Source: Candidatus Pacearchaeota archaeon (GTDB taxonomy: Archaea > Nanobdellota > Nanobdellia > Pacearchaeales > UBA284). Taken from it: DNA of 32,000 nt. The stretch covers positions 330,001 through 362,000 of the forward strand of contig CP061211.1 of assembly GCA_026016245.1 (NCBI GenBank). Direction: 5' to 3'. Positions within the stretch are counted from its first letter, which is position 1, and each line of letters starts with the position of its first letter. The position numbers and the translations under genes were made by a program. This document shows positions 1-22,566 of the stretch, piece by piece. The notes below the pieces were generated by a model. That model saw only the letters and a list, made by a program, of their open reading frames with translations, searched no databases and was not told where the DNA came from.

Positions 1-1057
1 AAGCATTACACATCCTATCTTCCTCTTCCTCAATTGTTACAGAAACACCATAGCATTTTTCAACATCAATGCTGACATCATATTTCTTTAAGACTTTACC
101 ATAATCAGTTAGAATTTCAATATTAACTGAGAAGTTTCCTTCTGTCATATAAGGTGGCCTTGCAATAATATTAAAAGTTTTCTCTTCTCCCTCTGCCACA
201 TTAAGTGTTTTTTGATCAAGAGTTGTCCAGGATGGACCATACATATTAATTCTATATATATTATCTCTTGTTCCTAAATTCCTGATTTTTATAGGAATAC
301 TAAGTTCCTCAGCCTCACACATCCTATAATAGATCTTCTCACTACTTAGGGTATAATCATAACAAGAAACAATCTCTATGTTAGCCACTTTGTTTGCCTG
401 AGCATAAGGACTCTCAGATGTAACAACAAAATTTACCTCATAAGTCCCAGCAACATTACAGGGTGTTAATACATAAACTTCAATATCTGTTTCTGTACAG
501 CTTGCTAGTGTTACAGATTCTGAAGAAAGACTTATCCAATCTGCAGCTGGTCCTTCAACTATTATGTCATAATTTTCTAGATAATTACCCATATTATTAA
601 TATTTAATAATATAGTTTCTTCTTCGCAAGCACAAATCATGAGTGTTTCAGGTTCAACACTTAAAATAGTATTATGACAATTTTCTACTATCACATTATG
701 TTCAACTGTTTTTATGTTTCCATTAGCTTTTTCCACAGTTATTTTAAGCTTGTAATTGCCTGGGGTAACTTGACTGGAAGGAGTAATATAAGAATAAATT
801 GATTGAGCCTGGCCTCCTTCAAGCCAGAATCCTGTTGGAACACTTGTTGTGAATGTTGCTGCTGTTCCTTCTACTGTTACTGTAAATGCACCTGCTGTTG
901 ATGCTGTTACAATATCTTCAATAACAATAGTAGAAGAAGGACAGACAGTGTTAGTTGTAATATTAGAGGTTATAGTAAATGCAGATGCTTGTGTTAAAGC
1001 AAATACAAATACAAACAAAAACATCAAAAACAATAATGTTGACCTTAACCTTTCCAT
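1..1057 (-). CDS. Secreted Cys-containing repeat surface protein (CARDB/NEW3-like, S-layer type); 3' end lies outside the window
   Basis: Absent from the ORF track because it runs off the window. Hand translation of the minus strand from ATG 1057..1055 gives MERLRSTLLFLMFLFVFVFALTQASAFTITSNITTNTVCPSS..., a signal-peptide-like N-terminus. The frame stays open to base 1 (...IEILTDYGKVLKKYDVSIDVEKCYGVSVTIEEEEDRMCNA). It contains repeating Cys-bracketed blocks such as IRNLGTRDNIYRINMYGPSWTTLDQKTLNVAEGEEKTFNIIARPP. The + strand ORF 849..1142 is its antisense shadow. Confidence 0.65.
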   Translation of the reverse strand, partial: MERLRSTLLFLMFLFVFVFALTQASAFTITSNITTNTVCPSSTIVIEDIVTASTAGAFTVTVEGTAATFTTSVPTGFWLEGGQAQSIYSYITPSSQVTPGNYKLKITVEKANGNIKTVEHNVIVENCHNTILSVEPETLMICACEEETILLNINNMGNYLENYDIIVEGPAADWISLSSESVTLASCTETDIEVYVLTPCNVAGTYEVNFVVTSESPYAQANKVANIEIVSCYDYTLSSEKIYYRMCEAEELSIPIKIRNLGTRDNIYRINMYGPSWTTLDQKTLNVAEGEEKTFNIIARPPYMTEGNFSVNIEILTDYGKVLKKYDVSIDVEKCYGVSVTIEEEEDRMCNA

Positions 1058-1157
1058 TTTATTGTCGCTATGTTGTTACTTAAAAAGAGAAAGTGAGTAT
1101 ATAAACTTTTTTGTGGTTAAATATAACATTTATAAGATATAAAAAAAGAAAAAAATC

Positions 1158-1898
1158 TTATTTAGCAATTTCCCAAAGCAATTCAAAATAATTTAGAAAG
1201 CTTTTAACTACATCTTTACTTTCTAAAACAAAACCAATTGGATTTATATCCCAAATGATTATAGCAACTTTATTTCCGTAAACTATTGTTGTTGCTGGAA
1301 ATTCAAATTTTTCTGGCAAAAATCTAACTTCAACTAATTTTTGTTCTTTTGTTGGTCTTTTTCCTTTCAACTTAATATTATAAATTATCTTGTAGTTTAT
1401 TTTTGCTTTAATTCTTCTTTTCTGCCAATTATCAAAATACCATTTGAAAATTTCTTTGAACCTGCCCTCAGCTCCAAAAGCAACAAAATCTTTCTTTGTT
1501 TTTAGGATATCTTCAAGAATATTTTTAATTCCCTCTTTACCAATAAATATCCTAACTTCCTGCTTTTCAGTTGCTATTTTTTGTCTTTTAATTAATTCTG
1601 GTAAAATTTTTTTAATTTCTAATTTATCTTCTTTAATTTTATGCTCTTTGCTTTCTAAAATTTGTAAAATTCTTTCTGGATTTTCAGAATTGAAATATTT
1701 CTTGTTGTTTTTTATAATAAAGCTAACTAATCCAAGATCAATAAGCTTGTCAAGAATATCATAAATATAACTTCTATGCAATCCTGTTTTCTTTACAAGA
1801 TCACTTACTGTTGCTGTGCCTATTTCAAGCAAAGTTAGATAGACTTTTCTATCATTTTTCGTTAATCCAATTTTTTCTAATATTTGAATATCTGTCAT
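1158..1898 (-). CDS. TrmB-family transcriptional regulator (N-terminal winged HTH)
   Basis: N-terminus LEKIGLTKNDRKVYLTLLEIGTATVSDLVKKTGLHRSYIYDILDKLIDLGLVSF is the classic TrmB HTH pattern. It is a full-length paralog of 29660..30370 (shared C-terminus ATT.(I/V)YGNK(V/I)...(F/Y)F(E/N)LLW(E/K)IAK). ATG start, with BRE/TATA 23-39 nt upstream. Confidence 0.85.
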   Translation of the reverse strand: MTDIQILEKIGLTKNDRKVYLTLLEIGTATVSDLVKKTGLHRSYIYDILDKLIDLGLVSFIIKNNKKYFNSENPERILQILESKEHKIKEDKLEIKKILPELIKRQKIATEKQEVRIFIGKEGIKNILEDILKTKKDFVAFGAEGRFKEIFKWYFDNWQKRRIKAKINYKIIYNIKLKGKRPTKEQKLVEVRFLPEKFEFPATTIVYGNKVAIIIWDINPIGFVLESKDVVKSFLNYFELLWEIAK

Positions 1899-1921
1899 AT
1901 ATTTATATTATCTTTTGCTTA

Positions 1922-1937
1922 TTTATAAATCTTGCGA
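1922..1937 (-). promoter_or_regulatory. BRE/TATA promoter of the TrmB-family gene (leaderless spacing)
   Basis: The minus strand reads CGCAAGA-TTTATAAAT. The TATA centre lies about 28 nt upstream of ATG 1898. ATTTATAAAT is itself palindromic. Confidence 0.45.
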
Positions 1938-2027
1938 AATTGTCGTAAGTAACTATGCTGGCAAATATTTAAATATAAACTATTAATGATATTACTATAA
2001 AGTGAATAAATAATAGGGGATATAAAA

Positions 2028-2855
2028 ATGAATACACGTAAAATAGGGATATTGCTAGGAAAACCAATTGGAGCAGTGAAAGACCCCTTTAGGAATAAGT
2101 ATCACTATTATTATGATGGTAAGGAAATTTATTTGTGGGGTGAATTGGGGATTATAGAGGATTATTTTGATGGTAGAAACGTTAATTTTAGTGAAGTTGA
2201 GAATACAGCTAAAAAGGATGGTTTAACTCTTAGAGAAATTTATCACTTTCCTCCTTTCGAAGCAACAATAATAGAACATGTGATAGGAGAAGCACTTTCA
2301 CATCAAGTGCCCTTAAACAAAGCTGAAGAATTATATATAAAAAGGGTGATTGAATACCGTAAAAGAAGAAAAGAAGAAGAAAAGAAAAAAGAAGAATTAG
2401 TAAAAAGTCTACAACCTAAAATATCTAAATTAAGAAAAAAATTAGAAGAAATTGTAAAAAAAGAATTTAAAGGATTCTCTAAAGCGGAAAAGGATGAGGA
2501 GATAGTGTTTTCTTGTTGTGGTAAGGAATTACTTCCGCTCATGGAACCCTATACGACTGTTTCGTGGCCAAAGATATTTAAAGGCTACATTAAAAAAGAA
2601 CCAGTATTTACAAGAATTGAACTAACAAAAAGAACAAAAAATGAAATAAAAACGATTGATGTAATTTACTATAAAAACATGGCTATTACATTTAAGTCAG
2701 AAAAAAGGTTGCTAGCCATGGATAAGTTTGCAAGATTTTTAATAGCATATCAACGAACAGATTTCGAAAAAGCTGTAGAAGATTTTAACAGAGACAAGTA
2801 TTGGAATTCAGATAATTACAAAATCAAAGATTTAGAGATAACTAAAATCAAATGA
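2028..2855 (+). CDS. Hypothetical protein (central Lys/Glu-rich coiled-coil segment), first gene of a 3-gene operon
   Basis: 275-aa ORF with an ATG start preceded by AGGGG 8 nt upstream. It has a KRRKEEEKKKEELVKSLQPKISKLRKKLEEIVKKE segment. No signal peptide and no motif I recognise. Confidence 0.6.
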   Translation: MNTRKIGILLGKPIGAVKDPFRNKYHYYYDGKEIYLWGELGIIEDYFDGRNVNFSEVENTAKKDGLTLREIYHFPPFEATIIEHVIGEALSHQVPLNKAEELYIKRVIEYRKRRKEEEKKKEELVKSLQPKISKLRKKLEEIVKKEFKGFSKAEKDEEIVFSCCGKELLPLMEPYTTVSWPKIFKGYIKKEPVFTRIELTKRTKNEIKTIDVIYYKNMAITFKSEKRLLAMDKFARFLIAYQRTDFEKAVEDFNRDKYWNSDNYKIKDLEITKIK

Positions 2856-2861
2856 AATAAA

Positions 2862-3755
2862 ATGGAAAAAGAATATGATAATGGAAGAACAAGAGGAAAT
2901 AAAATAAGAGATTTAGTTAAAGAGAATCTTGGTCTAGAAATTTTAGTTAAAAGGAACATGGATGAAGAAATGATAATAACAAACCCTTCATTTCATGTGG
3001 GAGCTTCAGCTATTACAGCAATCGAACTTGCCAAAGCATTCGAAGAAGCTTATAAAGGAGATTCAATTTCTGCAGCAGTCGAATTTTCCTCGGCACTTCA
3101 TAAAGGGGGGGTCCCAGCTATTGCAGCGATCGAATTTGCCAAAGAAAAGGGAAAGATACTCGTGCCAAATATCTTGGCGGATTATATTATTACAGAACCA
3201 AGTCAATGGATTAGTGTTGCGAAGGATTGCTGCATCTGCAATGCATCGCCGTTTTGGACAGGAACAATGACTGCTTATCGCGAACCAGATAAGAGATTAG
3301 GATCAGCAATTGAGTATGAAGATACAAAATCAAAAATTAAATGGATATTTCCAATTCCAGCTGAATTTAGAAAAATGAAAAATACCATTCTTGCTGTAGA
3401 ATACCCCCATTATAAACTTAAAGTATGGAGAGATCAATATGAGGATAATAGAATAACAGTTCTTACAGAGAGAAATAAGATTATTCCAGTGGAGAACTTT
3501 CCAAAAAAAGAAGGATGGTACAACTTTGATAAAAATACTGGAATACCAATTAGTGTAGGGGGTACATTGTTCAAAGGCCGAAGGTATTTGGATAGACGTG
3601 GTAAGAGAGTCGGACCTTTGGCCCGTTATGGTTTTGACTCTCACACTTTCGGTCCCGGCAAAGAGACTATTGATGCCCAATGTCGCCCATCTGTTTGCAA
3701 GGGAGTATTGGTGATCAGTCATGAAGCCTATTACAAACTAGAAGGTAAAAAATGA
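2862..3755 (+). CDS. Hypothetical protein with three internal A-I-E-(L/F)-A-K-type repeats and a G+C-rich C-terminal region
   Basis: 297-aa ORF starting 6 nt after the previous stop. Repeats: SAITAIELAKAFEEA / SAAVEFSSALHKG / PAIAAIEFAKEKG, also visible in the DNA (gctattacagcaatcgaacttgccaaag vs gctattgcagcgatcgaatttgccaaag). No recognisable family. Confidence 0.6.
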   Translation: MEKEYDNGRTRGNKIRDLVKENLGLEILVKRNMDEEMIITNPSFHVGASAITAIELAKAFEEAYKGDSISAAVEFSSALHKGGVPAIAAIEFAKEKGKILVPNILADYIITEPSQWISVAKDCCICNASPFWTGTMTAYREPDKRLGSAIEYEDTKSKIKWIFPIPAEFRKMKNTILAVEYPHYKLKVWRDQYEDNRITVLTERNKIIPVENFPKKEGWYNFDKNTGIPISVGGTLFKGRRYLDRRGKRVGPLARYGFDSHTFGPGKETIDAQCRPSVCKGVLVISHEAYYKLEGKK

Positions 3756-4333
3756 AAAACAATCTAATTACAAAATTAGAGGGAATTGGAGCTGAAAATA
3801 TTTATTATGGGGACGGAAGGTATGATGAGGAAAAAAAGATGCTAGAAGAGATGTCTAATGCCAATGATCCTACATTTTTGAAAGCACGGCTCCCCATAAA
3901 CTTTACTTATAAATCTAAGAAAGTCAAATGGCTTACTTACTACGACCCCTCCATAAGGGAGTTTAAAGAAAAGGAACGTTCTTTTTACTATCAAACTAAT
4001 CCGCCTCTTTTTTTAGATTACAGCAAACAATGGAATTCATTAAAAGATCTGGAGAAAAGACTAAATAATTTTATAAGAAAAAAACTTAAAGAAATTGATG
4101 CCCATCTAGAGATTGGTGGGAAATATATTTTTGAGAAACATTATAGTAAGCATATAAATATTAAAATCCAATTAGAAGAGTTTCTTTCATTTATTAGATC
4201 TTATGAGGATATTAGAGAAAAAATAGATAGCAAAACAAAAGAAATAGAGAAAGAGTTTAATAGAAGGGTACGCAAAAATTTAATTCCTTATTTTTCTAAA
4301 CTTAAAGAAAAAGTGAATAAAATGGAGATTTGA
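3752..4333 (+). CDS. Hypothetical protein, third gene of the operon
   Basis: 193-aa ORF whose ATGA overlap with the upstream stop indicates translational coupling. Lys/Glu-rich helical C-terminal half. No recognisable motif. Confidence 0.55.
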   Translation: MKNNLITKLEGIGAENIYYGDGRYDEEKKMLEEMSNANDPTFLKARLPINFTYKSKKVKWLTYYDPSIREFKEKERSFYYQTNPPLFLDYSKQWNSLKDLEKRLNNFIRKKLKEIDAHLEIGGKYIFEKHYSKHINIKIQLEEFLSFIRSYEDIREKIDSKTKEIEKEFNRRVRKNLIPYFSKLKEKVNKMEI

Positions 4334-4434
4334 GAGATGGAATAAGTTCCTTCGGAAGAGTTTAAAAAGAAAAATAAAAAAACATTAAATAAAAAATTTA
4401 GTTTTTGAGTTCTCGGCTTTCTTTTGGTTTAGGC

Positions 4435-5832
4435 TTAATAGTAACTCTCTTCTACTTCTGCTTTTTCTGCACTCTTTCTGGTTGTCAAAAGTAAGATCAA
4501 TAAGACAATGATTGCTGCAGCAAGGATTATACCAACAATTGTTAGTATAGTTTTAAGATCTCCTATTCCTTTGCCTTCTTCTTTTACAACGTTAGCAACC
4601 ATACTGTATTGTTCACTTTTACTGTCATGCTCTATCTTAACACTAAAGATATGCTCGCCTTCAACTGCATTTTCAGAGACAGCAACATAGACATTAACTA
4701 TCTTGCTCTCACCTGGCCTTAAGCTAAAAGCTTGTGGGTTGATTGTTACTTCTGCCCAACCTGCACATGCAGTTTCTCCACAACCACCTTCAGTCCCTAG
4801 AGCACTTACAATAAAATCTTCAGTCTCATCACCAAAGTTTGCGACAAGAAGTGTGTAAACAGCTCCCTTACCTAATTCAATCTCATTACTTGTTATCTGA
4901 GGAACTATCTCTACTTCCCCTTCTTCATATTCCTTTTCTTTCTTTCCAGGACCTTCTATAATAACATCTCTGAATTCTATATCAGAAACCTCATCATTGT
5001 AGGCCTTGACTTCAAGAGTATGAATTCCTGCATAAGCATCTAAAGGTATTATTAGAGCAACAGTAACAGTTTTTGCATCTTCATCATCGTCATCATCGCT
5101 TGCCTCTAAATCACCAAGATAGATTGTTCTTTCAATACAGAGCTCATTCAAGCTAACTCTCACATAAACATCTTCTGCTTCATGATTTCCTCTATTCTTG
5201 ACTGCAACATCTACATAAAGAGTTGTTCCAGCCTCGAAAGTCATTGTACATCCACCACAAGAACCATAGTAATTACCAGAATCATAAAGTTCCACAGACA
5301 TTATCTCAATCCAGTTAGCTATTCTTTGAATCTCTGTTTCAATATCTGCTTCATCAGTTCCACTCAAACCATGTTTTTGTTGGATATCTACATGTAAAGT
5401 ATATGTGTCTCTTGCATCTATATTCTTAGGGATGAAAAGATCAAGAGTCTTAGTGTATGTTTTTCCTTCAAAAACATCAAATAAAGATGTCTCTGCTTCA
5501 ATATCATCGTGATAACCACCTATCCATGCTTTAACTTTTGTCTCTTCAAAATCATCATTGGCAATAAAACTAACTTTAATCTCTGCATTCTCTTCTCTCT
5601 CTAGAGCTGGAGTTTCATATTGGTTTATTACACAATGCCATCTGTCTTCTGTTGGTGTAGGGTCATAATAACAATAACCATACCAAACCATTTCTCCATT
5701 CACATAGACAGTCATCTCATCTATGTCTGGTAAGCTGTATTCATACCAATCATCTGCCCTTGCATTAGAAAGCAAAAATACTGAAAACAATGCGACAACC
5801 AAAATAAAAGCCAAAATAAATTTAGTTTTCAT
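4435..5832 (-). CDS. Membrane-anchored surface protein (signal peptide, CARDB/NEW3-like repeats, C-terminal TM anchor)
   Basis: N-terminus MKTKFILAFILVVALFSVFLLSNARA is signal-peptide-like. C-terminus LKTILTIVGIILAAAIIVLLILLLTTRKS is a TM helix followed by basic residues. It has an acidic stretch EASDDDDDEDAK. Blocks such as VAVKNRGNHEAEDVYVRVSL and TLLVANFGDETEDFIVSA resemble CARDB-type domains. It is similar in style to the 1..1057 product. Confidence 0.75.
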   Translation of the reverse strand: MKTKFILAFILVVALFSVFLLSNARADDWYEYSLPDIDEMTVYVNGEMVWYGYCYYDPTPTEDRWHCVINQYETPALEREENAEIKVSFIANDDFEETKVKAWIGGYHDDIEAETSLFDVFEGKTYTKTLDLFIPKNIDARDTYTLHVDIQQKHGLSGTDEADIETEIQRIANWIEIMSVELYDSGNYYGSCGGCTMTFEAGTTLYVDVAVKNRGNHEAEDVYVRVSLNELCIERTIYLGDLEASDDDDDEDAKTVTVALIIPLDAYAGIHTLEVKAYNDEVSDIEFRDVIIEGPGKKEKEYEEGEVEIVPQITSNEIELGKGAVYTLLVANFGDETEDFIVSALGTEGGCGETACAGWAEVTINPQAFSLRPGESKIVNVYVAVSENAVEGEHIFSVKIEHDSKSEQYSMVANVVKEEGKGIGDLKTILTIVGIILAAAIIVLLILLLTTRKSAEKAEVEESYY

Positions 5833-5993
5833 TTGTTTTTATTTTTTTAGTTTATTTAATTAAAATTTAGACAAATTTAGACAAAATTTTGTCATTATTT
5901 TTGAGTTAAGTTGATTTAAAAAGCTTTCCCCATTATCGACGGTGTTGTTACTAATTGCGGGTAATTTGATTTTTCTTTTTACCGAAGAGGAAA

Positions 5994-6782
5994 TCACTTT
6001 ATAGATTTCCAGACTTTTAGTCCTTTCAAAGAATCTCTGTAAGGATTTGGGCTTTCATTGATTATTGTTATTGATAGGTTGTATCTTTTAATCCATCTCA
6101 AAAGTTCTCTAAGTCTGGATTCTGGTGTAACAAGATGTCTTCTCTCACCAGCTTTTGTCCATTCAATTCCAGAAAAATGTGAATGAATATATGAGAATCT
6201 TTTTATCTTTTCAAAAATTTCTTTGTAATTTATTTTTCCCTGAACACGAGCAAGCATATGGGCAAAATCAATACAAAAATGACATTTAGTCTCTCTAACT
6301 AATTTCAATAATTCATCTAGACTTCCAAATTGACTTGCTTTTCCAGTTGTTTCAGGAGCAAGCTTAACTTTCCATCCCTTCTTTTTAATCACTCTCTGCA
6401 TTTCTTGAATTCCTTTTTTTATGATCTTATAACATTCTTTTTCATTATGTTTACCATAATAACCTGCATGAAAAACTATATACTTAACGCCAAGATAATG
6501 TCCTCTCTCACAACAATCAAGAATTCTTTTTTTACTTGCTTCAATCTTTTTCTTTTCATGAGAAGCTAGATTAATCCAGTAATGAGCATGGATACTTAGT
6601 TTTATATTAAATTTTTTAGTTATTTTTCCAATTTCTTTGGCTTGATTATTATTCATCCATACTTGATAGGTAAAAGGGATTTCTGCTGCCCTTATGTTAT
6701 CTTTATTATATTTTTCTAGGTTTTTTGGAGTTTGTTTTACTCCACCAATTCCTGCGGGACCAAACCTAATCTCTTTTTTCAT
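5994..6782 (-). CDS. AP endonuclease family 2 / endonuclease IV-like TIM-barrel protein
   Basis: 262 aa. The motifs LSIHAHYWINL, YIVFHAGYY, LAPETTGK and IDFAHMLA match the metal-ligand pattern of Nfo-like xylose-isomerase-fold enzymes. Its ATG overlaps the ligase stop (ATGA). Confidence 0.7.
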   Translation of the reverse strand: MKKEIRFGPAGIGGVKQTPKNLEKYNKDNIRAAEIPFTYQVWMNNNQAKEIGKITKKFNIKLSIHAHYWINLASHEKKKIEASKKRILDCCERGHYLGVKYIVFHAGYYGKHNEKECYKIIKKGIQEMQRVIKKKGWKVKLAPETTGKASQFGSLDELLKLVRETKCHFCIDFAHMLARVQGKINYKEIFEKIKRFSYIHSHFSGIEWTKAGERRHLVTPESRLRELLRWIKRYNLSITIINESPNPYRDSLKGLKVWKSIK

Positions 6783-8542
6783 TTTCCTTTAACAAATCTT
6801 ATTGTCTTGACTCTTTTTTGCATCTTAAACATTTTTTCTATTTCTTTTACGCTAGTTGAATCTTCTGGCTTTTTGTCTCTGATCCAACTTTTAATTCTTG
6901 GAAATCTTAGAGCATATCCTGGCTTGTCTTTTGTTTTTCCTGCTGTATGCATCGGACTTTTTGTTATTTCATCAGCCATGACTGTGAAGACATATTTTGG
7001 CTGTGTCCAGACATCTGGTTTTGTTAATGAATCTACTCTAACTGGTTTCTTTTCTATTTTTATCTTGTCTAACAGTTTTCTAATCTCTTGCCATTTTGCT
7101 TCTGTCAAACCACTTCCTATCCTCGCTATTGTCTTGAACATATCTTTCTTTTTATCATAAACACATCCTAATAAAGCGCCTATACCAAATTTTGCTCTCA
7201 TTCCTCTGCCTTTGAAATAACCGACTATACAAACATCCACTGTATCTTGTAGTTTTCCTCTATATGATCTTTTTAACTTTATCCAATTGAAGTTTCTTGC
7301 TCCTGCTTGATATTCTGCTCCTAATCTCTTGGCTATGATGCCTTCTGTTCCTCTCTGGATATTTTCCTCAAAAAATTTCTCAAGTTCTTCTGGTTTGTTT
7401 GTTAAAATTTTTTCAGCTATTCTTATGGTAAATCCTTTCTTAATTATTCTATGTAATATTTTTGTCCTCTCACTATAGGATTTTTGTGTCATGTCTTTAT
7501 TATTGATGTATAGAATATCAAAACTGAACAAAACTAAGGGAGCTTCTTTTGCTCTTTTTTCTATTTCATATTTTCTTTTTCTTGTTATCGTAACTTGGAA
7601 TGGAAAAAATTCTCCAGTTGCTTCATTGAAGGCAACTGCTTCTCCCTCAAGTATAGCTGTTTTTGCTCTAATTTGTTTCTTTATTCCTTGGACAATATCA
7701 GGAAACATGGGGGTCATTATTTCTAGATTTCGAGAAAAAATTTCAATCTTGTCTCCTTTCTTATGTACCTGAAGTCTCAGTCCGTCATATTTTGTCTCGA
7801 CTGCACATTTTCCTATTTTTTTTATTATGTCAGAAGCAGATGGAAGTCTTTCTGCGAGAGCCATTCTTATTGGTGAGCCTATTTGTACTTTGAATGTTTT
7901 TAATCCTTTGACTCCTTTCTTGAATAAAACATCTGCCACTAATCCTAAATCAGAACTTAGATTATATGCCCTTTCAATATCTGGTCTTAATTTCATTCTG
8001 TCACCAGTTATAGCTTTGCTCATTGAATCCATTATTGTTGGATCTCCTATTCCTAATCTTAATCTACCTAAAACAAATCTTACAATGTATTTTGCCTCTT
8101 TAGCTGAAACTTTGCTAAGCAAGCCAGCCAGCATATTAATTTTTCTTTCAACGCTTCCTGCTCCACCTGTTTTTGCTATTTTTAATATAGTATTATAAAC
8201 TTCAATTATTGTCGGAGCTTTAGTTTTGATCAGTGTTCTTTGTTTTTTTGAAAGTTTTTCTGCAGCTATGCCTAGATCACCTGTTTTTTTGTATAATTTT
8301 GATACCTCGCTTGCTGATTTTCCTGAACACTTTGCTATGGATTTCTCAATCATTTTTTCTGCCATTCCAATCTCTATTCCTTTAAATGATGGCAGAAGTT
8401 TTTCTTCACAAAAATAAACAACCTCATCTACCTCTTCCTTGGAAATTTTTTTAAAAAATTGGCTTAGAATTTCAAACATTTCCAAGCGTTTTGTGGTTTT
8501 TTCTAGTTTTTCAAATACTTCGGCTAGTTGTAAAAAGAGCAT
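6779..8542 (-). CDS. lig: ATP-dependent DNA ligase
   Basis: Contains the adenylation motif ETKYDGLRLQVH (KxDG), plus EGIIAKRL, WIKLK and an OB-fold C-terminal region. The track ORF starts at a TTG (8557). The first ATG at 8542 gives MLFLQLAEVFEKLEKTTKRLEM, typical of archaeal ligase N-termini. Confidence 0.93.
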   Translation of the reverse strand: MLFLQLAEVFEKLEKTTKRLEMFEILSQFFKKISKEEVDEVVYFCEEKLLPSFKGIEIGMAEKMIEKSIAKCSGKSASEVSKLYKKTGDLGIAAEKLSKKQRTLIKTKAPTIIEVYNTILKIAKTGGAGSVERKINMLAGLLSKVSAKEAKYIVRFVLGRLRLGIGDPTIMDSMSKAITGDRMKLRPDIERAYNLSSDLGLVADVLFKKGVKGLKTFKVQIGSPIRMALAERLPSASDIIKKIGKCAVETKYDGLRLQVHKKGDKIEIFSRNLEIMTPMFPDIVQGIKKQIRAKTAILEGEAVAFNEATGEFFPFQVTITRKRKYEIEKRAKEAPLVLFSFDILYINNKDMTQKSYSERTKILHRIIKKGFTIRIAEKILTNKPEELEKFFEENIQRGTEGIIAKRLGAEYQAGARNFNWIKLKRSYRGKLQDTVDVCIVGYFKGRGMRAKFGIGALLGCVYDKKKDMFKTIARIGSGLTEAKWQEIRKLLDKIKIEKKPVRVDSLTKPDVWTQPKYVFTVMADEITKSPMHTAGKTKDKPGYALRFPRIKSWIRDKKPEDSTSVKEIEKMFKMQKRVKTIRFVKGK

Positions 8543-10842: not shown

Positions 10843-11874
10843 ATGGGTAAAGAAATTTTTAATAAAATATTAGATCTTGTTCAAGAGTTTAAACAGATTA
10901 GTGATAAACAATTTAATAAATTAGCATTAGAAGTTTTTTCTTATCAGTATAAAACTAACAAATCTTATAAAAAATATTGTGACCGTCTGAAAAAAGACCC
11001 TAGTAAAGTAGATCATTGGTTAGATGTTCCTTTCATCCTTACTAGATTTTTTAAAGATGTACAAATTACTAATCTTAAAGATAAAGAAGTTTATGAGGTT
11101 GGTAGAACTGGTGGGACGGGCCTTCCTGGAAAGGTAGGACATATATTCAGAGATAAAAAAACAGTAGGATTAATGTATACAGCATTCTCAAAAGTTTTGA
11201 GTTATTATACTCCTCTACAAAAAAATAAAGGAAGAAAGTTTTTATTGTTTTATCCACCTGAAAGAGAAGAAGTAGAGGATTTAGGTATAGCAGCAGTCAA
11301 AGGTATTGGAAGAAAAGCTGATGCTAAATTTTTAGATTCTTTTGAAGAGCTCGAAAAGGAAATTAAAAAAGCAAGAAAAAGTCCAGTAGATGTTTTCTTA
11401 GCCTCTCCAATTTTACCTCACTTATTAAGAAAGGCAAAAACTAACAGATGGAAATTTCCAGAAGATACTTTCCTTATAGATCAAGGAAAAAAGAGATCTA
11501 AAGGAATTGGTAAATTAGGAATTTTAAAGCACAATTATGTAAATTTGTATGGTTTAACTGAAGTAAATTCTGAATTTTGTGACAGCGCATATATTAATTG
11601 GTTAGAAAACAATAGAGATCCAGTATATAGGCCTAATTTGCCATGGACAAGAACTATAGCGGTTCATCCAGAAACTTTAGAGAGATTGCAGGAAGGTAAA
11701 AAAGGATTATTAAGACATTATGATTTAACAAATTTAACTCATTGTTTAGCTATTCAGACAGATGATTTGGGTTATGAGATAGAAAAGGGATTTGAAGTTA
11801 TTGGTAAAAAGAAGGGAGCAGAAGCGAAAACATGTTCTTATGTTACCAAAGAATTATTAGGGCTTGAAAAATAA
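10843..11874 (+). CDS. LuxE-like acyl-protein synthetase / adenylate-forming enzyme
   Basis: The N-terminal pattern LALEVFSYQYKTNKSYKKYCDRL...VDHWLDVPFILTRFFKD parallels LuxE (YQYHFHHNEDYRAYC...IPVFPTSMFK). RTGGTG parallels LuxE SSGTSG. The C-terminal VHPETLERLQEGKKGLLRHYDL...IQTDDLG parallels LuxE LDPETLKPV..GEIGLL...VTDDIG. Confidence 0.6.
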   Translation: MGKEIFNKILDLVQEFKQISDKQFNKLALEVFSYQYKTNKSYKKYCDRLKKDPSKVDHWLDVPFILTRFFKDVQITNLKDKEVYEVGRTGGTGLPGKVGHIFRDKKTVGLMYTAFSKVLSYYTPLQKNKGRKFLLFYPPEREEVEDLGIAAVKGIGRKADAKFLDSFEELEKEIKKARKSPVDVFLASPILPHLLRKAKTNRWKFPEDTFLIDQGKKRSKGIGKLGILKHNYVNLYGLTEVNSEFCDSAYINWLENNRDPVYRPNLPWTRTIAVHPETLERLQEGKKGLLRHYDLTNLTHCLAIQTDDLGYEIEKGFEVIGKKKGAEAKTCSYVTKELLGLEK

Positions 11875-11875
11875 A

Positions 11876-12370
11876 ATGATAAATAGAAATTTTAGAAAAA
11901 TAATTAATAGATTTTCGGGATTACATAAATTAAAAGAGATGAAGGACAATGTTAGATTCAAATGTCAAAAATGTGGTTTTTGTTGTCGTGCATTTCCTGT
12001 AGTAGCTACTAAAAAAGAAGCTAAACATAACAAATTGCTTATTGAAAATTCTAAGCCAATTATAAAAAATCTGAGATTACTTTCTAAAAAGAAAAATGAA
12101 TGTGTTTTTTTGAATGAAAAAAATGAGTGTGATATAAATAATTCAAAACCAATCTTATGTCAAACTTATCCTTTTTATTATAATAGTAAAAATAAAAAAT
12201 TCTATTATGATATAAATTGTCCAGGGATAGGAAAAGGAAGAAAAATTAATCTAGAAAAAATAAAAAATTTAACTCTCAAATTTGAAAACCAAATTTCTAA
12301 AAAAGAACTAGAGTTGCGTTATTTGCTAATATTTGAAGAAAAAATAAAAAAAGAAAAAATAAAATTATAA
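11876..12370 (+). CDS. YkgJ/UPF0153-type CxxCxxCC zinc/iron-chelating domain protein
   Basis: Contains FKCQKCGFCCRAFPV (CxxCxxCC), and later CVFL...C...PILCQTYPF and NCPGIG. The track start at 11864 is TTG. The ATG at 11876 lies 1 nt after the upstream stop. Confidence 0.65.
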   Translation: MINRNFRKIINRFSGLHKLKEMKDNVRFKCQKCGFCCRAFPVVATKKEAKHNKLLIENSKPIIKNLRLLSKKKNECVFLNEKNECDINNSKPILCQTYPFYYNSKNKKFYYDINCPGIGKGRKINLEKIKNLTLKFENQISKKELELRYLLIFEEKIKKEKIKL

Positions 12371-17261: not shown

Positions 17262-18371
17262 TTATCTGAATGATTTTAAAATTTCTGAAATTGATTTTTC
17301 CTTTACATTTCCAATAACTTCTTTTCTTTCAGGATAATTTTCAAAAAATTGAGCATAACAATTACTTACATAACCATCATGGCTTATTCTTATTTGTTTA
17401 GTAAAAACATCATTAATAGGAAGATAATTTATTATAACTCTGTTAGTTCCATATTCATATTTATTAAATATAACCCCATATTCATCAATAAAAAGATTCT
17501 TTAAATCAATAGTTTCTTTTTCAACTAATTTATCCATTATTGATTTTGTTGTGTCATAATCATTTTTAATTATAATTTCAAGGTCATTGAATTTATTAAA
17601 ATCAAAAATTCTTCCATTGGCAATTTTTTGATATATTTCTACGATTTTTTCATCGGAAATATTTAATTCCCCATTTCCTTTTGGTGTTGGAATATATGGA
17701 GAAATAAGAAGATTTTTTAAACCAAATCCATAACTGGTTTTAAAAAATTCAGGTAAATTTTCTTTATTATGATTATTTAATGTATGAATAATAAATACTT
17801 TTTCTAAGAGCCTAGGATATTCATGCATTAGTTTTATATTATTTATGGTTTTTTCAAAATTACCTTTTCCTCTAATATAATCGTGTTTTTCTTTTGTTCC
17901 ATCAAGACTTATATCAATATAATTTGGCATAATTTCTGCTAGTTCTTTAATAATTTTTTTATTCATTAAAGTAGCATTAGTAACAATACCAAATCTTAAT
18001 TTAGAAATTTTTTCTCTTTTTTCAGCAAGAAAATATAGTAATTCTTTGGTTTTATCCCAACTTAATAAAGGTTCTTTTCCAACATTCCCAAATGTTAGTG
18101 CTCCCATATCAATCAATTCACCAAAAACATTTTTCCATTCTTTAATACTTAATTCATCATTTTTATTATTATAACCAACATAACAATGTCTACATTTGAG
18201 ATTACAAATATTATTAATAAAATAAGAAATATCTAATTCTTCTAATAAATTTTGTTTTGTAGAGAGAGAAGTATGACTATTACTAACACCGCCACAACTT
18301 CCTGAAAATCCTATTGCCATTTTTTTATGATTTGAGATTCCTCCATTGCTTCCTGAAAACCCCATTGCCAT
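17262..18371 (-). CDS. Radical SAM enzyme (SPASM/twitch-family-like core, no full auxiliary Cys cluster) with two N-terminal copies of the GFSGSxGG(I/V)S tag
   Basis: Contains CNLKCRHC (CX3CX2C), GNVGKEPLL, FGIVTNATL and ISLDGTKEKHDYIRGKGNFEKTINNIKL, all typical of peptide-modifying radical SAM families. The C-terminus has one Cys only (HDGYVSNCY). The track start at 18380 is TTG. The first ATG at 18371 gives MAMGFSGSNGGISNHKK-MAIGFSGSCGGVSNSH.... There is no in-frame ATG between the second tag and the Cys cluster. Confidence 0.85.
   Translation of the reverse strand: MAMGFSGSNGGISNHKKMAIGFSGSCGGVSNSHTSLSTKQNLLEELDISYFINNICNLKCRHCYVGYNNKNDELSIKEWKNVFGELIDMGALTFGNVGKEPLLSWDKTKELLYFLAEKREKISKLRFGIVTNATLMNKKIIKELAEIMPNYIDISLDGTKEKHDYIRGKGNFEKTINNIKLMHEYPRLLEKVFIIHTLNNHNKENLPEFFKTSYGFGLKNLLISPYIPTPKGNGELNISDEKIVEIYQKIANGRIFDFNKFNDLEIIIKNDYDTTKSIMDKLVEKETIDLKNLFIDEYGVIFNKYEYGTNRVIINYLPINDVFTKQIRISHDGYVSNCYAQFFENYPERKEVIGNVKEKSISEILKSFR
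18282..18371 (-). repeat. Two in-frame tag-coding repeats at the 5' end of the radical SAM gene (copies 3 and 4 of 4)
   Basis: Minus strand: ATGGCAATGGGGTTTTCAGGAAGCAATGGAGGAATCTCA (18371..18333) and ATGGCAATAGGATTTTCAGGAAGTTGTGGCGGTGTTAGT (18320..18282). Compare ATGGCAATACCAGGGTTTTCAGGAAGCAATGGAGGCATAAGT (18745..18704) and ATGGCAGTACCAGGGTTTTCAGGAAGCGGTGGAGGCATATCT (18561..18520). Confidence 0.9.
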
Positions 18372-18372
18372 T

Positions 18373-18561
18373 TTATTCAAATGATTGCAGAAGTTTCTCT
18401 AATTCTTTGACCCCTTTTTCAAAAATTGGTTTATATTGTTTGTCAACTTGTTCTGCCAATTTTTTATATTTAGTTATTCCAACTTGGACATCTTTTTTAA
18501 TCACTGTTCTATAAAAATCAGATATGCCTCCACCGCTTCCTGAAAACCCTGGTACTGCCAT
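18373..18561 (-). CDS. Small protein B (62 aa) with N-terminal MAVPGFSGSGGGIS tag; candidate radical SAM substrate
   Basis: ATG start 1 nt after the stop of protein A (TAA-A-ATG). The same TAAAATGGCA junction links it to the radical SAM gene. The tail aligns with protein A (D(I/V)Q, Y, L..L..S.E). Confidence 0.7.
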   Translation of the reverse strand: MAVPGFSGSGGGISDFYRTVIKKDVQVGITKYKKLAEQVDKQYKPIFEKGVKELEKLLQSFE

Positions 18562-18562
18562 T

Positions 18563-18745
18563 TTACAATTTATCTTCTAAGGAATTGAATAATTTTTTTA
18601 GATTTGAAATTGATTCTTTAAATAAAACTTTATATTGGATTTTTGATTCATACTGGTCAATTAACTTTTGGATATCCCCTTTCTTTAGCTTCCTATACGT
18701 TCTACTTATGCCTCCATTGCTTCCTGAAAACCCTGGTATTGCCAT
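18563..18745 (-). CDS. Small protein A (60 aa) with N-terminal MAIPGFSGSNGGIS tag; candidate radical SAM substrate
   Basis: ATG start. It is the first gene of the minus-strand cassette. It has a Gly/Ser-rich 14-aa N-terminus followed by a Lys/Glu-rich helical tail. The + ORF 18585..18767 is its antisense shadow. Confidence 0.7.
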   Translation of the reverse strand: MAIPGFSGSNGGISRTYRKLKKGDIQKLIDQYESKIQYKVLFKESISNLKKLFNSLEDKL

Positions 18746-18836
18746 TGTATTAGAAATAGACAGTTAGAGAAGAAGAACCTTTTCCTCATTTTTTCCTTTA
18801 AAATTAAAAAAAAATATTAATCTATTTAATAGTAGA

Positions 18837-18853
18837 GCAAAAATTTATAAATA
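18837..18853 (+). promoter_or_regulatory. BRE/TATA promoter of the Lrp/AsnC gene (leaderless spacing)
   Basis: GCAAAAA-TTTATAAATA, with the TATA centre about 25 nt upstream of ATG 18873. Confidence 0.45.
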
Positions 18854-18872
18854 AAATACCCTATTAGTTTCT

Positions 18873-19823
18873 ATGAAAATAGATAAAATTGATAGGAAAT
18901 TACTAAGTTATTTATATCACAATTATAGAGAACCTCTAACTAAAATAGCAAAAGCATGTAAACTATCAAAGGATCAGGTTGGATATAGAGTTAGAAAATA
19001 TGAAAAAGAGGGGTTTATCAAAAAATATATTACTATTTTTAATTATAATCTCTTAGGTTATAATGAATTTATTGTAGTTTGGTTAAAATTAAAGAAAAAT
19101 AAAGAAAGTATTAAGAAAAAACTTGAAGGTATGAAAAATGTTGTCTCTGTTGGAGATATAATTACTAATTATAATTTATTCATTGATTTTGTTTCTAAAG
19201 ATAAACAAGAATTTGAAAGAGTATTTTATTCTTTTTTAAAAAAACATGAAAGGGAAATACAAGATTACTCAATTTTTATAATAACTTACGCTGAATTTTT
19301 TCCTCTCAAAGGTTTTGGAATATCTGACGTAGAAAAAACATATACTATTGTAAGTTCAGTAAAACCTATAAAAATTGATAAAAAAAGTTTAGAAGTTTTA
19401 AAAACATTAGAGAATAATGGTAGGGTAAGGATTATAGATATTGCAGAAAAAACGGGGCTTTCAAGTGAACTTATATTGTATAAATTGAAGCAATTTTACA
19501 AGAAAAAAATAATTCTTGGAATGAGAATACAATTTGATATGGAAAAATTAGGTTTTTATTTTGGGGTATTAAGAATTAAATTAAAAAATCAAACAGAAGA
19601 AATTAAATCAAAAATAAAAAAGTTTTGTAAGAATTATAAAAATATTAATGCTTTATCTTTTGGAATTTCTGAATATAATTGTTTAATACAAATTTTTTAT
19701 CAACAAGAAGAAGAATTTAGACAAACTATAAGAGACATTAATAAAGAATTTAAAGGAGAAATAGAAAAATCTGAAATTGTGTTAATAGAGAATGAGGGGA
19801 GAGTTAAAACTTTACCCTATTGA
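18873..19823 (+). CDS. Tandem-duplicated Lrp/AsnC-family transcriptional regulator
   Basis: Two HTH_AsnC-like segments are present: IDRKLLSYLYHNYREPLTKIAKACKLSKDQVGYRVRKYEKEGFIKKY and IDKKSLEVLKTLENNGRVRIIDIAEKTGLSSELILYKLKQFYKKKIILG. Each is followed by a RAM-like beta-alpha region (GYNEFIVVWLKLK / GFYFGVLRIKLK). Confidence 0.75.
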   Translation: MKIDKIDRKLLSYLYHNYREPLTKIAKACKLSKDQVGYRVRKYEKEGFIKKYITIFNYNLLGYNEFIVVWLKLKKNKESIKKKLEGMKNVVSVGDIITNYNLFIDFVSKDKQEFERVFYSFLKKHEREIQDYSIFIITYAEFFPLKGFGISDVEKTYTIVSSVKPIKIDKKSLEVLKTLENNGRVRIIDIAEKTGLSSELILYKLKQFYKKKIILGMRIQFDMEKLGFYFGVLRIKLKNQTEEIKSKIKKFCKNYKNINALSFGISEYNCLIQIFYQQEEEFRQTIRDINKEFKGEIEKSEIVLIENEGRVKTLPY

Positions 19824-21282: not shown

Positions 21283-22566
21283 TTAAAAAAATTCCAAGGC
21301 TTTTTTTAATTCTATATGTGTTTTTGCATAATTTTTCAATGTTTTTCCTTCCATTACTGCAGTCAGGGCTTGCCTTGCAGCTTTTGCTCCTCCAAATGTA
21401 CCTAAAGGATGGCCATGAATGCCTCCCCCCATTTGAATTATAATGTTTTTGCCTAAATGTTTTACAAGATAAGAAATATGCCCGGGATGAAGACCACCAG
21501 AACATACTGCAAAAGTAGGTTTGATATGATACCATCTTTGCTCTAACATGTGTCTTGATTCTAATCTATGGTCAAGGATCATTGATTGTTCCATTTCTTG
21601 ATCTAATCCAACAACTTCAGTCTTAGGAGTTTCCATTTTTCCTACAATAGTTCCTATATGGAGCTGATCTAAACCAATAAGTCTGGTTAGCTTTGCGATA
21701 ACAAGCATGCTGATTCCATGTCTTGGATTTCTGCTTAAGGCAGCATAACCTGCACGATGAGCATGTAATACTAACTTTAATTTTTCATTTTCTTCCCTAA
21801 GTGTCTGCAAAGCACCCCATCCACAAGAAACAATGTCAATCATAGCATACTCACAACCATGTTTCTTGACAAATCTTGCTCTTCTTAGCATTTCTTCAGT
21901 TTCTGCAGTTATATTTGGCATATACATCTTCTTTTCTCCTGTTTTTTCTTCAGCTTTATCTCTTGCTTTTAATGTTTCAATAACTCTAGTAAGAAATTTG
22001 TTGAAAGACTGACTAGATAAATTTTCATCATCTTTTACAATATCACAACCACCAATCCAAGCATTATAAGCAACTTGTGCATGTTCTTTCTCATTTAATC
22101 CTAATTTTGGCTTAATAATAGTTCCAAGAAGAGGCCTATCTTTAACTTTCAACAATTTCCTGACACCATAAATACCATACATAGGGCCTCTAAAACTCTT
22201 GATAATATTTTCAGGAAATTCTATATCCAACAATTTGAGATTTTTAATAGTCTTCATGCCAAAAATATTTCCTGCTATACTGCTTAAAATTTGTGGGATA
22301 TTGTTTAATTCAAAAAGAACAGAGGGATAGGCTATTTTGATGTAATAGCCTTTATTGCCTTTTATAGAGAAAACTTTTGCAACAAGTCTATCTATTCTTT
22401 TTGGAGCTTCTGTCACATCTGTCCAGGTTCCAATACTAGATTCAGAAGCTATGGCTCCAGCAGCTTCATGAGGCTTAATTTTTGAAGCAGGCTCCATATA
22501 AAATTCACATATGAGATCTGTCTTTTTTGGCTTATATTTTAAGTCAACATAATCAGTATACTTCAC
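21283..22566 (-). CDS. rbcL: RuBisCO large subunit, archaeal form III type
   Basis: Contains GGCDIVKDDENL (carbamylated Lys context), SIAGNIFGMK, LHAHRAGYAA, SGGLHPGH and GGGIHGHP. At 427 aa it aligns along its length with the Thermococcus form III enzyme as I remember it. GTG start. No small-subunit gene is present. Confidence 0.92.
   Translation of the reverse strand: MKYTDYVDLKYKPKKTDLICEFYMEPASKIKPHEAAGAIASESSIGTWTDVTEAPKRIDRLVAKVFSIKGNKGYYIKIAYPSVLFELNNIPQILSSIAGNIFGMKTIKNLKLLDIEFPENIIKSFRGPMYGIYGVRKLLKVKDRPLLGTIIKPKLGLNEKEHAQVAYNAWIGGCDIVKDDENLSSQSFNKFLTRVIETLKARDKAEEKTGEKKMYMPNITAETEEMLRRARFVKKHGCEYAMIDIVSCGWGALQTLREENEKLKLVLHAHRAGYAALSRNPRHGISMLVIAKLTRLIGLDQLHIGTIVGKMETPKTEVVGLDQEMEQSMILDHRLESRHMLEQRWYHIKPTFAVCSGGLHPGHISYLVKHLGKNIIIQMGGGIHGHPLGTFGGAKAARQALTAVMEGKTLKNYAKTHIELKKALEFF

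Follow-up and report, generated by a model that had tools for sequence, protein, structure and literature searches.

In the borosins, the substrate segment is either fused to the enzyme, which then acts autocatalytically, or carried on an adjacent small precursor, and multicopy cores occur (10.1101/2021.12.24.474128). MoaA (GTP 3',8-cyclase), a radical S-adenosylmethionine (SAM) enzyme, ends in a conserved, flexible, glycine-containing tail, which reaches into the active site and is disordered in structures (PMC12625886). Here we describe a radical SAM cassette from a Candidatus Pacearchaeota archaeon in which a short Gly/Ser-rich N-terminal tag stands on two small proteins and also on the enzyme encoded next to them. 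The cassette lies in a 32,000-nucleotide (nt) stretch of contig CP061211.1 (assembly GCA_026016245.1, positions 330,001 to 362,000), which we call the window and from whose sequence an original prediction had picked out the small proteins and the enzyme. We find that the tag is the hallmark of an enzyme family spanning archaea and bacteria, and we tentatively read it as the enzyme's own substrate. The fused or split architecture of this family is like that of the borosins, and the likeness ends there: the borosin enzyme is a SAM methyltransferase, whereas the enzyme described here is a radical SAM protein with no methyltransferase domain and no sequence relationship to it, so that the cassette does not belong to the borosins. 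Moreover, the core of the fused fungal borosins is C-terminal, whereas the tag described here is strictly N-terminal.

The window locus consists of three genes on the minus strand, open reading frame (ORF) A, ORF B, and the radical SAM gene, which are joined by TAA-A-ATG junctions read from the sequence and form one translationally coupled operon. ORF A (18563..18745) encodes a 60-amino-acid (aa) protein (P0158) in which the tag MAIPGFSGSNGGIS is followed by a Lys/Glu-rich tail, and ORF B (18373..18561) encodes a 62-aa protein (P0121) in which the tag MAVPGFSGSGGGIS is followed by a beta-type tail (KPIF, comparable to KPLY). The radical SAM gene (17262..18371) encodes an enzyme of 369 aa counted from its ATG, identified through Pfam, its homologs, an AlphaFold2 (AF2) model, and fold matches. 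The ORF coordinates of the original prediction hold, as do its junctions and the CNLKCRHC, GKEPLL, TNATL, and ISLDG blocks, all of which are present in the window enzyme. It had also placed the tag correctly at the starts of ORF A (18704..18745) and ORF B (18520..18561) but had missed two further copies, which open the enzyme in tandem and in frame (MAMGFSGSNGGISNHKK-MAIGFSGSCGGVSN). The distal copy, MAMGFSGSNGGIS, is at the very N-terminus of the enzyme (18333..18371), and the proximal copy, MAIGFSGSCGGVS, occupies residues 18 to 30 (18282..18320). The window thus carries four tags of the form M-A-x-(P)-G-F-S-G-S-x-G-G-[IV], one on each small ORF and two on the enzyme. A repeat search lists the same four DNA copies as the count of the 15-nt tag core GGNTTTTCAGGAAGY, which occurs four times in the window versus 0.02 times expected by chance.

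A homolog search with the window enzyme returned 439 proteins, the best 120 of which are 45 to 67% identical to it over 80 to 100% of the query; P0001, from a Candidatus Pacearchaeota metagenome-assembled genome, is identical to the window protein. The archaeal sources among these 120 include Pacearchaeota, Woesearchaeota, Aenigmatarchaeota, and Nanoarchaeota, and the bacterial sources include Patescibacteria, Brocadia, Desulfobacteraceae, Bacteroidales, Dehalococcoidia, and Ignavibacteriales. About 110 of the 120 begin with M-A-[LIVM]-(P)-G-[FWLI]-S-G-S-N-G-G-[IV], and the tag is always at the extreme N-terminus of the protein that bears it. Tag positions M1, A2, G4, S6, G7, S8, N9, G10, and G11 are 88 to 100% conserved, compared with ~50% identity over the whole proteins. 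The tag is therefore not confined to the small proteins, as had been supposed, but is the N-terminus of the enzyme family itself. We define the family by the tag, carried either by the enzyme or by a small ORF next to it, together with two further sequence blocks, SYFxNxxCNLxCxHCYV and TFGNVGKEP, and the window enzyme has all of these features. We concluded that the tagged radical SAM enzymes are an uncurated, previously undescribed family of archaea and bacteria. The tag motif is not printed in any paper of the library that we could search, and the same library yielded nothing specific on ribosomally synthesized and posttranslationally modified peptides (RiPPs) of DPANN archaea or on the combination of SIR2, radical SAM, and Opp genes.

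By the distance from the start codon to strand beta-1 (SYF), the enzymes divide sharply into two classes, of ~30 and ~39 residues. The proximal tag of the window enzyme lies 31 residues before SYF, close to the 30-residue, short-linker class, which is mostly archaeal, and the distal tag is supernumerary. The tag has also been duplicated independently, in tandem and in frame, in P0109, P0122 to P0124, L097 (L097:1390), and P0160/P0161, and in each of them, as in the window enzyme, the internal copy retains its own Met-Ala. This suggests either that translation can initiate at an alternative site or that a mini-ORF consisting of the tag alone became fused to the next cistron. The retention of Met-Ala in the duplications, together with the strictly N-terminal position of the tag, suggests that a free N-terminus matters. 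When the small proteins were aligned by hhalign with the N-termini of the long-linker enzymes, which are mostly bacterial, the two matched over 25 columns with a probability of 98.5%; the shared 25-residue module consists of the tag, ~10 residues, and a conserved D-[LIV].

Both small ORFs represent genuine genes and belong to a family of ~40 clusters in which conservation extends well beyond the tag. Small proteins taken from the loci align over their full length, with D24 and L52/L57 invariant and G28, K31, Y32, and Y47 nearly so, and the coding conservation on which the original prediction depended is thus seen across the family alignment. The ~40 clusters came from a profile search, and all of those with a named source are from DPANN; a homolog search with ORF B alone found only ORF B itself, and the profile derived from the loci was needed. 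Two paralog types, of 71 and 67 aa, are often paired upstream of the enzyme (e.g., in L003, L006, and L144). The window proteins A and B are divergent members of this DPANN family (P0121 scores 83.6 bits against its profile), and their tails are 49% identical. No relative of the small proteins was found in Pfam or the PDB, where the weak matches were helical bundles. An exhaustive hidden Markov model scan of 1.84 billion representatives gave 27 matches, ~19 of them true members, and revealed no other tag-bearing protein family, although such a scan has low sensitivity to tag-only matches and most of the enzymes fell below its threshold. Further classes of small tagged ORFs, which were found in the metagenome scan described below, have unrelated tails: one, of 59 to 61 aa, occurs in loci whose enzymes resemble that of a Patescibacteria (candidate phyla radiation [CPR]) locus, L022; another, of 35 to 40 aa, is Lys-rich; and a 36-aa tagged ORF lies downstream of a tagless enzyme in L130.

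We then compared the distribution of the tag on the enzyme (in cis) with that on the small proteins (in trans). The rule described here rests on two sets selected through the enzyme, the 25 genome loci L001 to L025 and the best 120 homologs, as loci L081 to L139 had been selected by the tag itself. Within L001 to L025, only the DPANN loci have small tagged ORFs immediately upstream of the enzyme, and the one addition to this pattern overall is that such ORFs also stand beside the enzyme in CPR-type loci; most bacterial loci have no small tagged protein. This distribution does not fit the simple picture of a precursor plus a maturase, which was implicit in the original prediction. The closest archaeal loci resemble the window: that of P0002, whose enzyme is 67% identical, has a divergent Lrp-like gene, one small ORF, and then the radical SAM gene, and that of P0005 has a divergent Lrp-like gene, two small ORFs, and then the radical SAM gene. 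Scanning metagenome contigs for the tag as a DNA pattern yielded 59 loci, 52 of them genuine and 7 due to chance (the latter carry Thr, Cys, or Arg instead of Ser). With a single exception, every genuine tag belongs to a radical SAM enzyme or to a small ORF of the same operon or else sits at a contig end. Thus, tag-bearing ORFs co-occur with this radical SAM family both at the enzyme loci and in the metagenome scan, as the original prediction had proposed. The exception is L104, the sole apparent orphan among the 52, in which a 75-aa ORF (L104:424-651) carries two copies of the tag (P0160) and no recognizable radical SAM gene is found in the ~800 nt downstream.

Among the loci that we tabulated, the enzyme tag is intact in the absence of any small tagged ORF in 44 and intact in the presence of one in 17, while in 4 it is degraded and a small tagged ORF lies upstream. 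None of the tabulated loci is free of the tag, and the tagless enzymes of L130, L140, and L142 each adjoin a small tagged ORF. Cis and trans tags therefore complement each other. In three of the small-ORF loci (L093, L130, and L142), the enzyme has lost the whole arm, down to RPLEVSYF, implying that the arm is dispensable for folding and that its role can be supplied in trans.

Three of the loci have peculiarities of their own. In L140, the tagless enzyme P0020 (3001-4032) is preceded by an overlapping 40-aa tagged ORF in another frame (2904-3026), an arrangement that resembles a tagged enzyme split by a frameshift and that could be either a real split or an assembly error. L126 (L126:437-3878) encodes a more distant member of the family, with the cluster motif CNLKCPAC and a divergent TrmB-like regulator; a 372-aa gene resembling a periplasmic binding protein lies between its 40-aa tagged ORF and its tagged radical SAM ORF, which is itself apparently split by a frameshift. 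Directly downstream of the tagless enzyme in L142 are genes for a MazE-like antitoxin and a weakly matching HEPN-domain protein (L142:1460-2199).

The window enzyme is a radical SAM protein by sequence, matching Radical_SAM (PF04055) over residues 52 to 211 with 83.5 bits (cutoff, 29.5). The three cysteines of its CxxxCxxC cluster motif, CNLKCRHC (C56, C60, and C63; 18183..18206), are invariant alignment columns, and GKEP is conserved across the family. It has only two other cysteines, C26, inside the second tag, and C338 (IRISHDGYVSNC; 17358..17360), and across 111 sequences the sole invariant cysteines are C56, C60, C63, and C338. With C338 as the only conserved C-terminal cysteine, the SPASM-like domain no longer has ligands for an auxiliary cluster, and from this alignment an auxiliary cluster would not be expected in the family; a weak Pfam SPASM match (26.8 bits; cutoff, 21.5) is a remnant of the fold. 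The enzyme therefore falls outside the SPASM/twitch definition, which calls for Cys ligands of one or two auxiliary [4Fe-4S] clusters, and the claim that it has no complete SPASM cluster is upheld. Nor is it an RRE-dependent maturase (RRE, RiPP recognition element): no PqqD/RRE match was found in it with Pfam, and only 26 to 48 residues precede strand beta-1, too few for an RRE domain to fit.

The comparison with the NCBIfam radical SAM models (among them NirJ1, AhbC, WgkB, StsB, PapB, the SCIFF maturase, and mycofactocin), which covers the best 25 of the 66 families listed, gave no score near a cutoff: the best, NirJ1, reached 78.4 bits versus 650, and a dozen SPASM maturases scored similarly low. 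When the enzyme, the small ORFs, and their neighbors were scanned with NCBIfam, Pfam, and PADLOC, no specific family was assigned, and the only match was a weak, generic one to pVip. The cassette is thus a real, conserved, and uncurated one, as originally claimed. The placement of the enzyme in the peptide-maturase type is also sustained, at the level of the fold. In a Foldseek search with the AF2 model, the nearest structures were CteB, anSME, ChlB, SuiB, and SkfB (E values of ~1e-11 to 1e-12; TM of ~0.58; 15 to 19% identity), with viperin and MoaA ranking next, and a profile search of PDB sequences found CteB (1.5e-20) and SkfB. CteB, anSME, SkfB, SuiB, and ChlB are thus its best structural and sequence matches, and it resembles anSME in size and in having no RRE; unlike the SPASM/twitch enzymes, it has no auxiliary cluster and no RRE and carries a substrate-like motif on itself. 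Membership in the anSME group, whose members have three [4Fe-4S] clusters and a (C/S)xPxR substrate motif, was considered and discarded because the auxiliary cysteines are absent and the tag lacks an xPxR context, leaving a likeness of fold only. We concluded that the enzyme belongs to the peptide-modifier fold class but lacks auxiliary clusters. Mean AF2 confidence (pLDDT) is 88 for the window enzyme and 92 for a canonical homolog, P0043. Residues 1 to 23 of the window enzyme, with its doubled tag, score below 50, and in P0043 residues 1 to 10 average 62 and residues 11 to 40 score ~90. This low confidence of the tag suggests that the N-terminal arm is flexible, and the models predict that it is anchored by a docked segment.

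Upstream of the operon, across a 127-bp A+T-rich intergenic region (18746..18872) that presumably holds the promoters of both transcription units, lies a divergent gene for a 316-aa tandem Lrp/AsnC-type regulator (18873..19823, plus strand) with two helix-turn-helix domains (Pfam HTH_24 and HTH_AsnC-type, two stretches each). It belongs to the Lrp/AsnC family by sequence (71 bits and an E value of 1e-19 against the AsnC/Lrp models of NCBIfam), and its best PDB sequence matches, over residues 3 to 138 and 166 to 293, are exclusively archaeal Lrp/FFRP regulators. The original prediction had recognized this divergent regulator but had treated it simply as the only neighbor, missing the fact that a gene of ~316 aa occupies the same position in 12 archaeal loci. 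The Lrp/AsnC-type gene is therefore a conserved part of the archaeal cassette, and its product would control the operon. It is absent from bacterial and CPR loci, and the CPR loci have a divergent TrmB-like regulator. In nine non-CPR bacterial loci (L008 [120-7110], L002, L005, L007, L010, L011, L013, L016, and L023), the tagged radical SAM gene is the last of a conserved cassette that encodes an Opp/Dpp/Nik-type ABC importer (ATPase, SBP_bac_5, and two permeases) and a 375-aa SIR2_2-domain protein, and the stop codon of the SIR2_2 gene overlaps the start of the radical SAM gene.

The other neighbors in the window, within ~8 kb, are housekeeping genes (FtsZ, GatD, DnaG, EF-1alpha, and RuBisCO), and, as reported in the original prediction, no YcaO, protease, PqqD/RRE-like gene, or exporter is found among them. 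That prediction had also likened the small proteins to bottromycin, in which a short conserved N-terminal segment likewise precedes a longer C-terminal part. However, no YcaO, B12-dependent radical SAM methyltransferase, protease, or exporter was found in the window neighborhood or among the conserved neighbors of 26 loci. The analogy thus fails on every defining component (YcaO, the B12-dependent methyltransferase, and the protease), and we rejected a bottromycin-like pathway. The RuBisCO large-subunit homolog (21283-22566, minus strand), which adjoins EF-1alpha, has both Pfam domains (E value, 3e-91). Elsewhere in the window (10843-12370, plus strand), an ORF for a 343-aa LuxE-like acyl-protein synthetase overlaps a 168-aa ORF with a CxxCxxCC zinc/iron-chelating domain; the pair has no relation to the tag cassette.

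The reading that we favor, at a probability of roughly 0.45, is that the N-terminal arm is the enzyme's own substrate, supplied in either fused or split form. The flexible Gly/Ser-rich arm would thread, N-terminus first, to the active site within the partial TIM barrel, where the 5'-deoxyadenosyl radical would take a hydrogen from one of the arm's Gly, Ser, or Asn residues. Delivery would be in cis where the arm is fused to the enzyme, as in most bacteria, and in trans where it is split off, as on the small proteins of the window, and C338 would be a candidate hydrogen atom donor or thiyl site. The absence of auxiliary clusters and the invariance of C338 would make a redox-neutral outcome (epimerization, or retention on the arm of a radical or a modified residue) likelier than thioether formation or oxidative cross-linking. 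We infer, then, that the arm enters the active site, acts there as a substrate, and undergoes chemistry of this type. The multiplicity of the tag, its tandem duplication, and its apparent concerted evolution within a locus are typical of precursor-like elements and would support this reading. Several considerations weigh against it. There is no predicted model in which the tag occupies the active site, and its AF2 confidence is just 27 to 62. Substrates fused to their enzymes are, to our knowledge, rare, and the enzyme bears the sole tag in about two-thirds of the loci, where it would have to be self-modifying or single-turnover. The importer and SIR2-like gene of the nine bacterial loci hint that the true substrate there may be imported. 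No protease or exporter that could free a product was found in the window neighborhood or in related loci. Finally, the flexible Gly-rich terminal tail of MoaA is a catalytic gate, and it works in trans as a peptide (PMC12625886).

The MoaA precedent is the basis of a rival explanation, which we regard as somewhat unlikely, in which the tag would serve catalysis or regulation as a tail that slips in beside SAM, shuts the active site, and gates reductive SAM cleavage once the true substrate has bound and in which the small proteins are detachable tail-bearing subunits or activators replacing a lost cis tail. In MoaA, the disordered GG tail senses substrate and sets off SAM cleavage, and GG mutants are rescued in trans by an 11-mer peptide (PMC12625886). 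The window enzyme has MoaA among its structural matches, the tag is strictly terminal and present on the enzyme in nearly all members, enzymes with a degraded tag are always near a small tagged protein, which fits complementation in trans, and the bacterial ABC importer and SIR2-like gene could supply or process a separate substrate. Yet the MoaA tail is C-terminal and GG alone is critical in it, whereas the family tag is N-terminal and near-invariant at 9 of 12 positions, including both Ser residues and Asn, which is more than a GG gate needs; MoaA also has an auxiliary cluster, a nucleotide substrate, and no known separate tail-bearing genes, whereas here the tag is repeated on stand-alone proteins. 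A gate would leave unexplained the 17 loci that combine an intact enzyme tag with one or two small tagged proteins, the maintenance across DPANN of two small-protein paralogs with conserved tails, and the tandem duplication of the tag. The nearest folds, moreover, are modifiers of proteins and peptides rather than small-molecule enzymes, and nothing encoded in the DPANN loci is a candidate second substrate. We consider it quite unlikely that the arm is instead a carrier, on which the radical SAM enzyme would install a stable protein radical, such as a glycyl radical, or a protein-derived cofactor, so that the modified arm, on the enzyme or on small "spare-arm" proteins, would perform or relay further chemistry. 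The glycyl-radical signature is R-V-x-G-Y, and GrcA/YfiD is a spare-part protein of glycyl-radical enzymes. The tag is similar in its pattern of hydrophobic-x-Gly-aromatic-small (A-x-G-[FWY]-S), a small protein here too shares its motif with a larger one, glycyl-radical systems likewise have no auxiliary cluster, and all hosts of the tagged family are, as far as is known, anaerobes. Against this, the tag has no Arg at -3, mostly carries F, W, L, or I where the signature has Y, and sits at the N-terminus on a flexible arm; the Gly_radical model of Pfam matched neither the small proteins nor the enzyme; and no glycyl-radical activase is among the top NCBIfam and PDB fold matches listed, where SPASM maturases are found. 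We therefore rejected glycyl-radical membership on the signature and retained the idea as a mechanistic possibility only. Very unlikely, in our judgment, is a classical leader-core RiPP system with the tag as the leader, the tails of the small proteins as cores, and the enzyme tag as an autoinhibitory pseudoleader. The recognition element of a RiPP is usually conserved and its core variable, the tails do vary by lineage (the alpha and beta types of DPANN, 59 to 61 aa in CPR, and Lys-rich at 35 to 40 aa), and an enzyme without an RRE needs some other handle. The tail classes, however, have no modifiable motif in common and no conserved Cys, Trp, or Tyr pattern, the small protein is absent from most loci, and no protease or exporter was found in the window neighborhood or in related loci; in addition, the 13-residue Gly/Ser segment does not resemble known leaders, and the similarity of the small proteins to the enzyme N-terminus is limited to the first 25 residues.

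Two other explanations strike us as extremely improbable, and we rejected both. In one, the tag would act at the level of nucleic acid or translation at the 5' ends of cistrons, as an initiation enhancer, a ramp, or a Gly/Ser-sensing attenuator, and would have no function as a peptide. The original prediction had pointed to conservation of the tag DNA at synonymous sites, and within the window this is correct: the tags of ORFs A and B do not differ at any synonymous site, despite the 49% identity of their tails. An amino acid-responsive Lrp-type regulator also adjoins the cassette. A codon analysis of 81 distinct tags (from the window, L001 to L025, and L081 to L142) found TCA at Ser6 in 46, versus a background of 19%, a figure inflated by phylogenetic nonindependence, and AGY at Ser8 in 65; shared ancestry probably accounts for much of this, less clearly for the preference for TCA within the TCN box. 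All four Gly codons, on the other hand, are in use at every Gly position of the tag, and this free wobble across loci, together with the persistently hydrophobic x positions, indicates that selection acts on the peptide. The tag is kept across bacteria and archaea despite their different initiation signals, no Rfam match was found at the tag region, and RNA folding at the three starts is no better than that of shuffled sequences (z = 0.59, 0.99, and -0.11). The identity within the window is better read as concerted evolution: in L003 (5567-6045), Ser8 is encoded by the rare TCA codon both in the beta small ORF and in the enzyme, and such patterns indicate that the tag copies of one locus may undergo gene conversion or concerted evolution. 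In the other explanation, the enzyme would be a NirJ/AhbC/AhbD-like protein of tetrapyrrole synthesis and its Lrp-like neighbor a siroheme decarboxylase similar to AhbA/B (NirDL). The top NCBIfam matches of the enzyme are indeed NirJ1, AhbC, and NirJ (78, 73, and 71 bits), and the neighbor weakly matches AhbA and AhbB (37 and 30 bits). These enzyme scores, however, are about one-tenth of the cutoffs (650, 650, and 515) and equal to those of many unrelated SPASM maturases, the auxiliary-cluster cysteines are absent, and the neighbor scores higher against AsnC/Lrp regulators (71 bits) and matches only archaeal regulators in the PDB. Furthermore, the Lrp-like gene is missing from the bacterial and CPR loci, and the tag would be left unexplained. 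By its defining features, the enzyme is a radical SAM protein that falls outside the curated SPASM families, RRE-dependent maturases, anSME, Ahb/NirJ, bottromycin, glycyl-radical systems, and borosins. Its mode of action would be nearest either to a self-substrate system of the fused/split, borosin kind or to a tail-gated radical SAM enzyme like MoaA.

Radical SAM modifiers of peptides and proteins are a major source of new enzyme chemistry, and the tagged family adds hundreds of members from both prokaryotic domains. Its architecture is unusual in that most lineages have a near-invariant arm fused to the enzyme and that, in ultrasmall DPANN and CPR organisms, the arm is split onto small proteins. 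If the arm is a substrate, as we favor, the family would be the first radical SAM counterpart of the fused/split logic of the borosins, as well as one of the rare systems with an N-terminal core. Should it be a gate, the tail-gated radical initiation of MoaA would extend to a new family with natural trans-acting tails, and should it be a carrier, the cassette would amount to a minimal radical enzyme system that activates itself and has GrcA-like spare parts, common to DPANN, CPR, and anaerobic bacteria. Genome-reduced symbionts retain a dedicated and regulated radical enzyme cassette.

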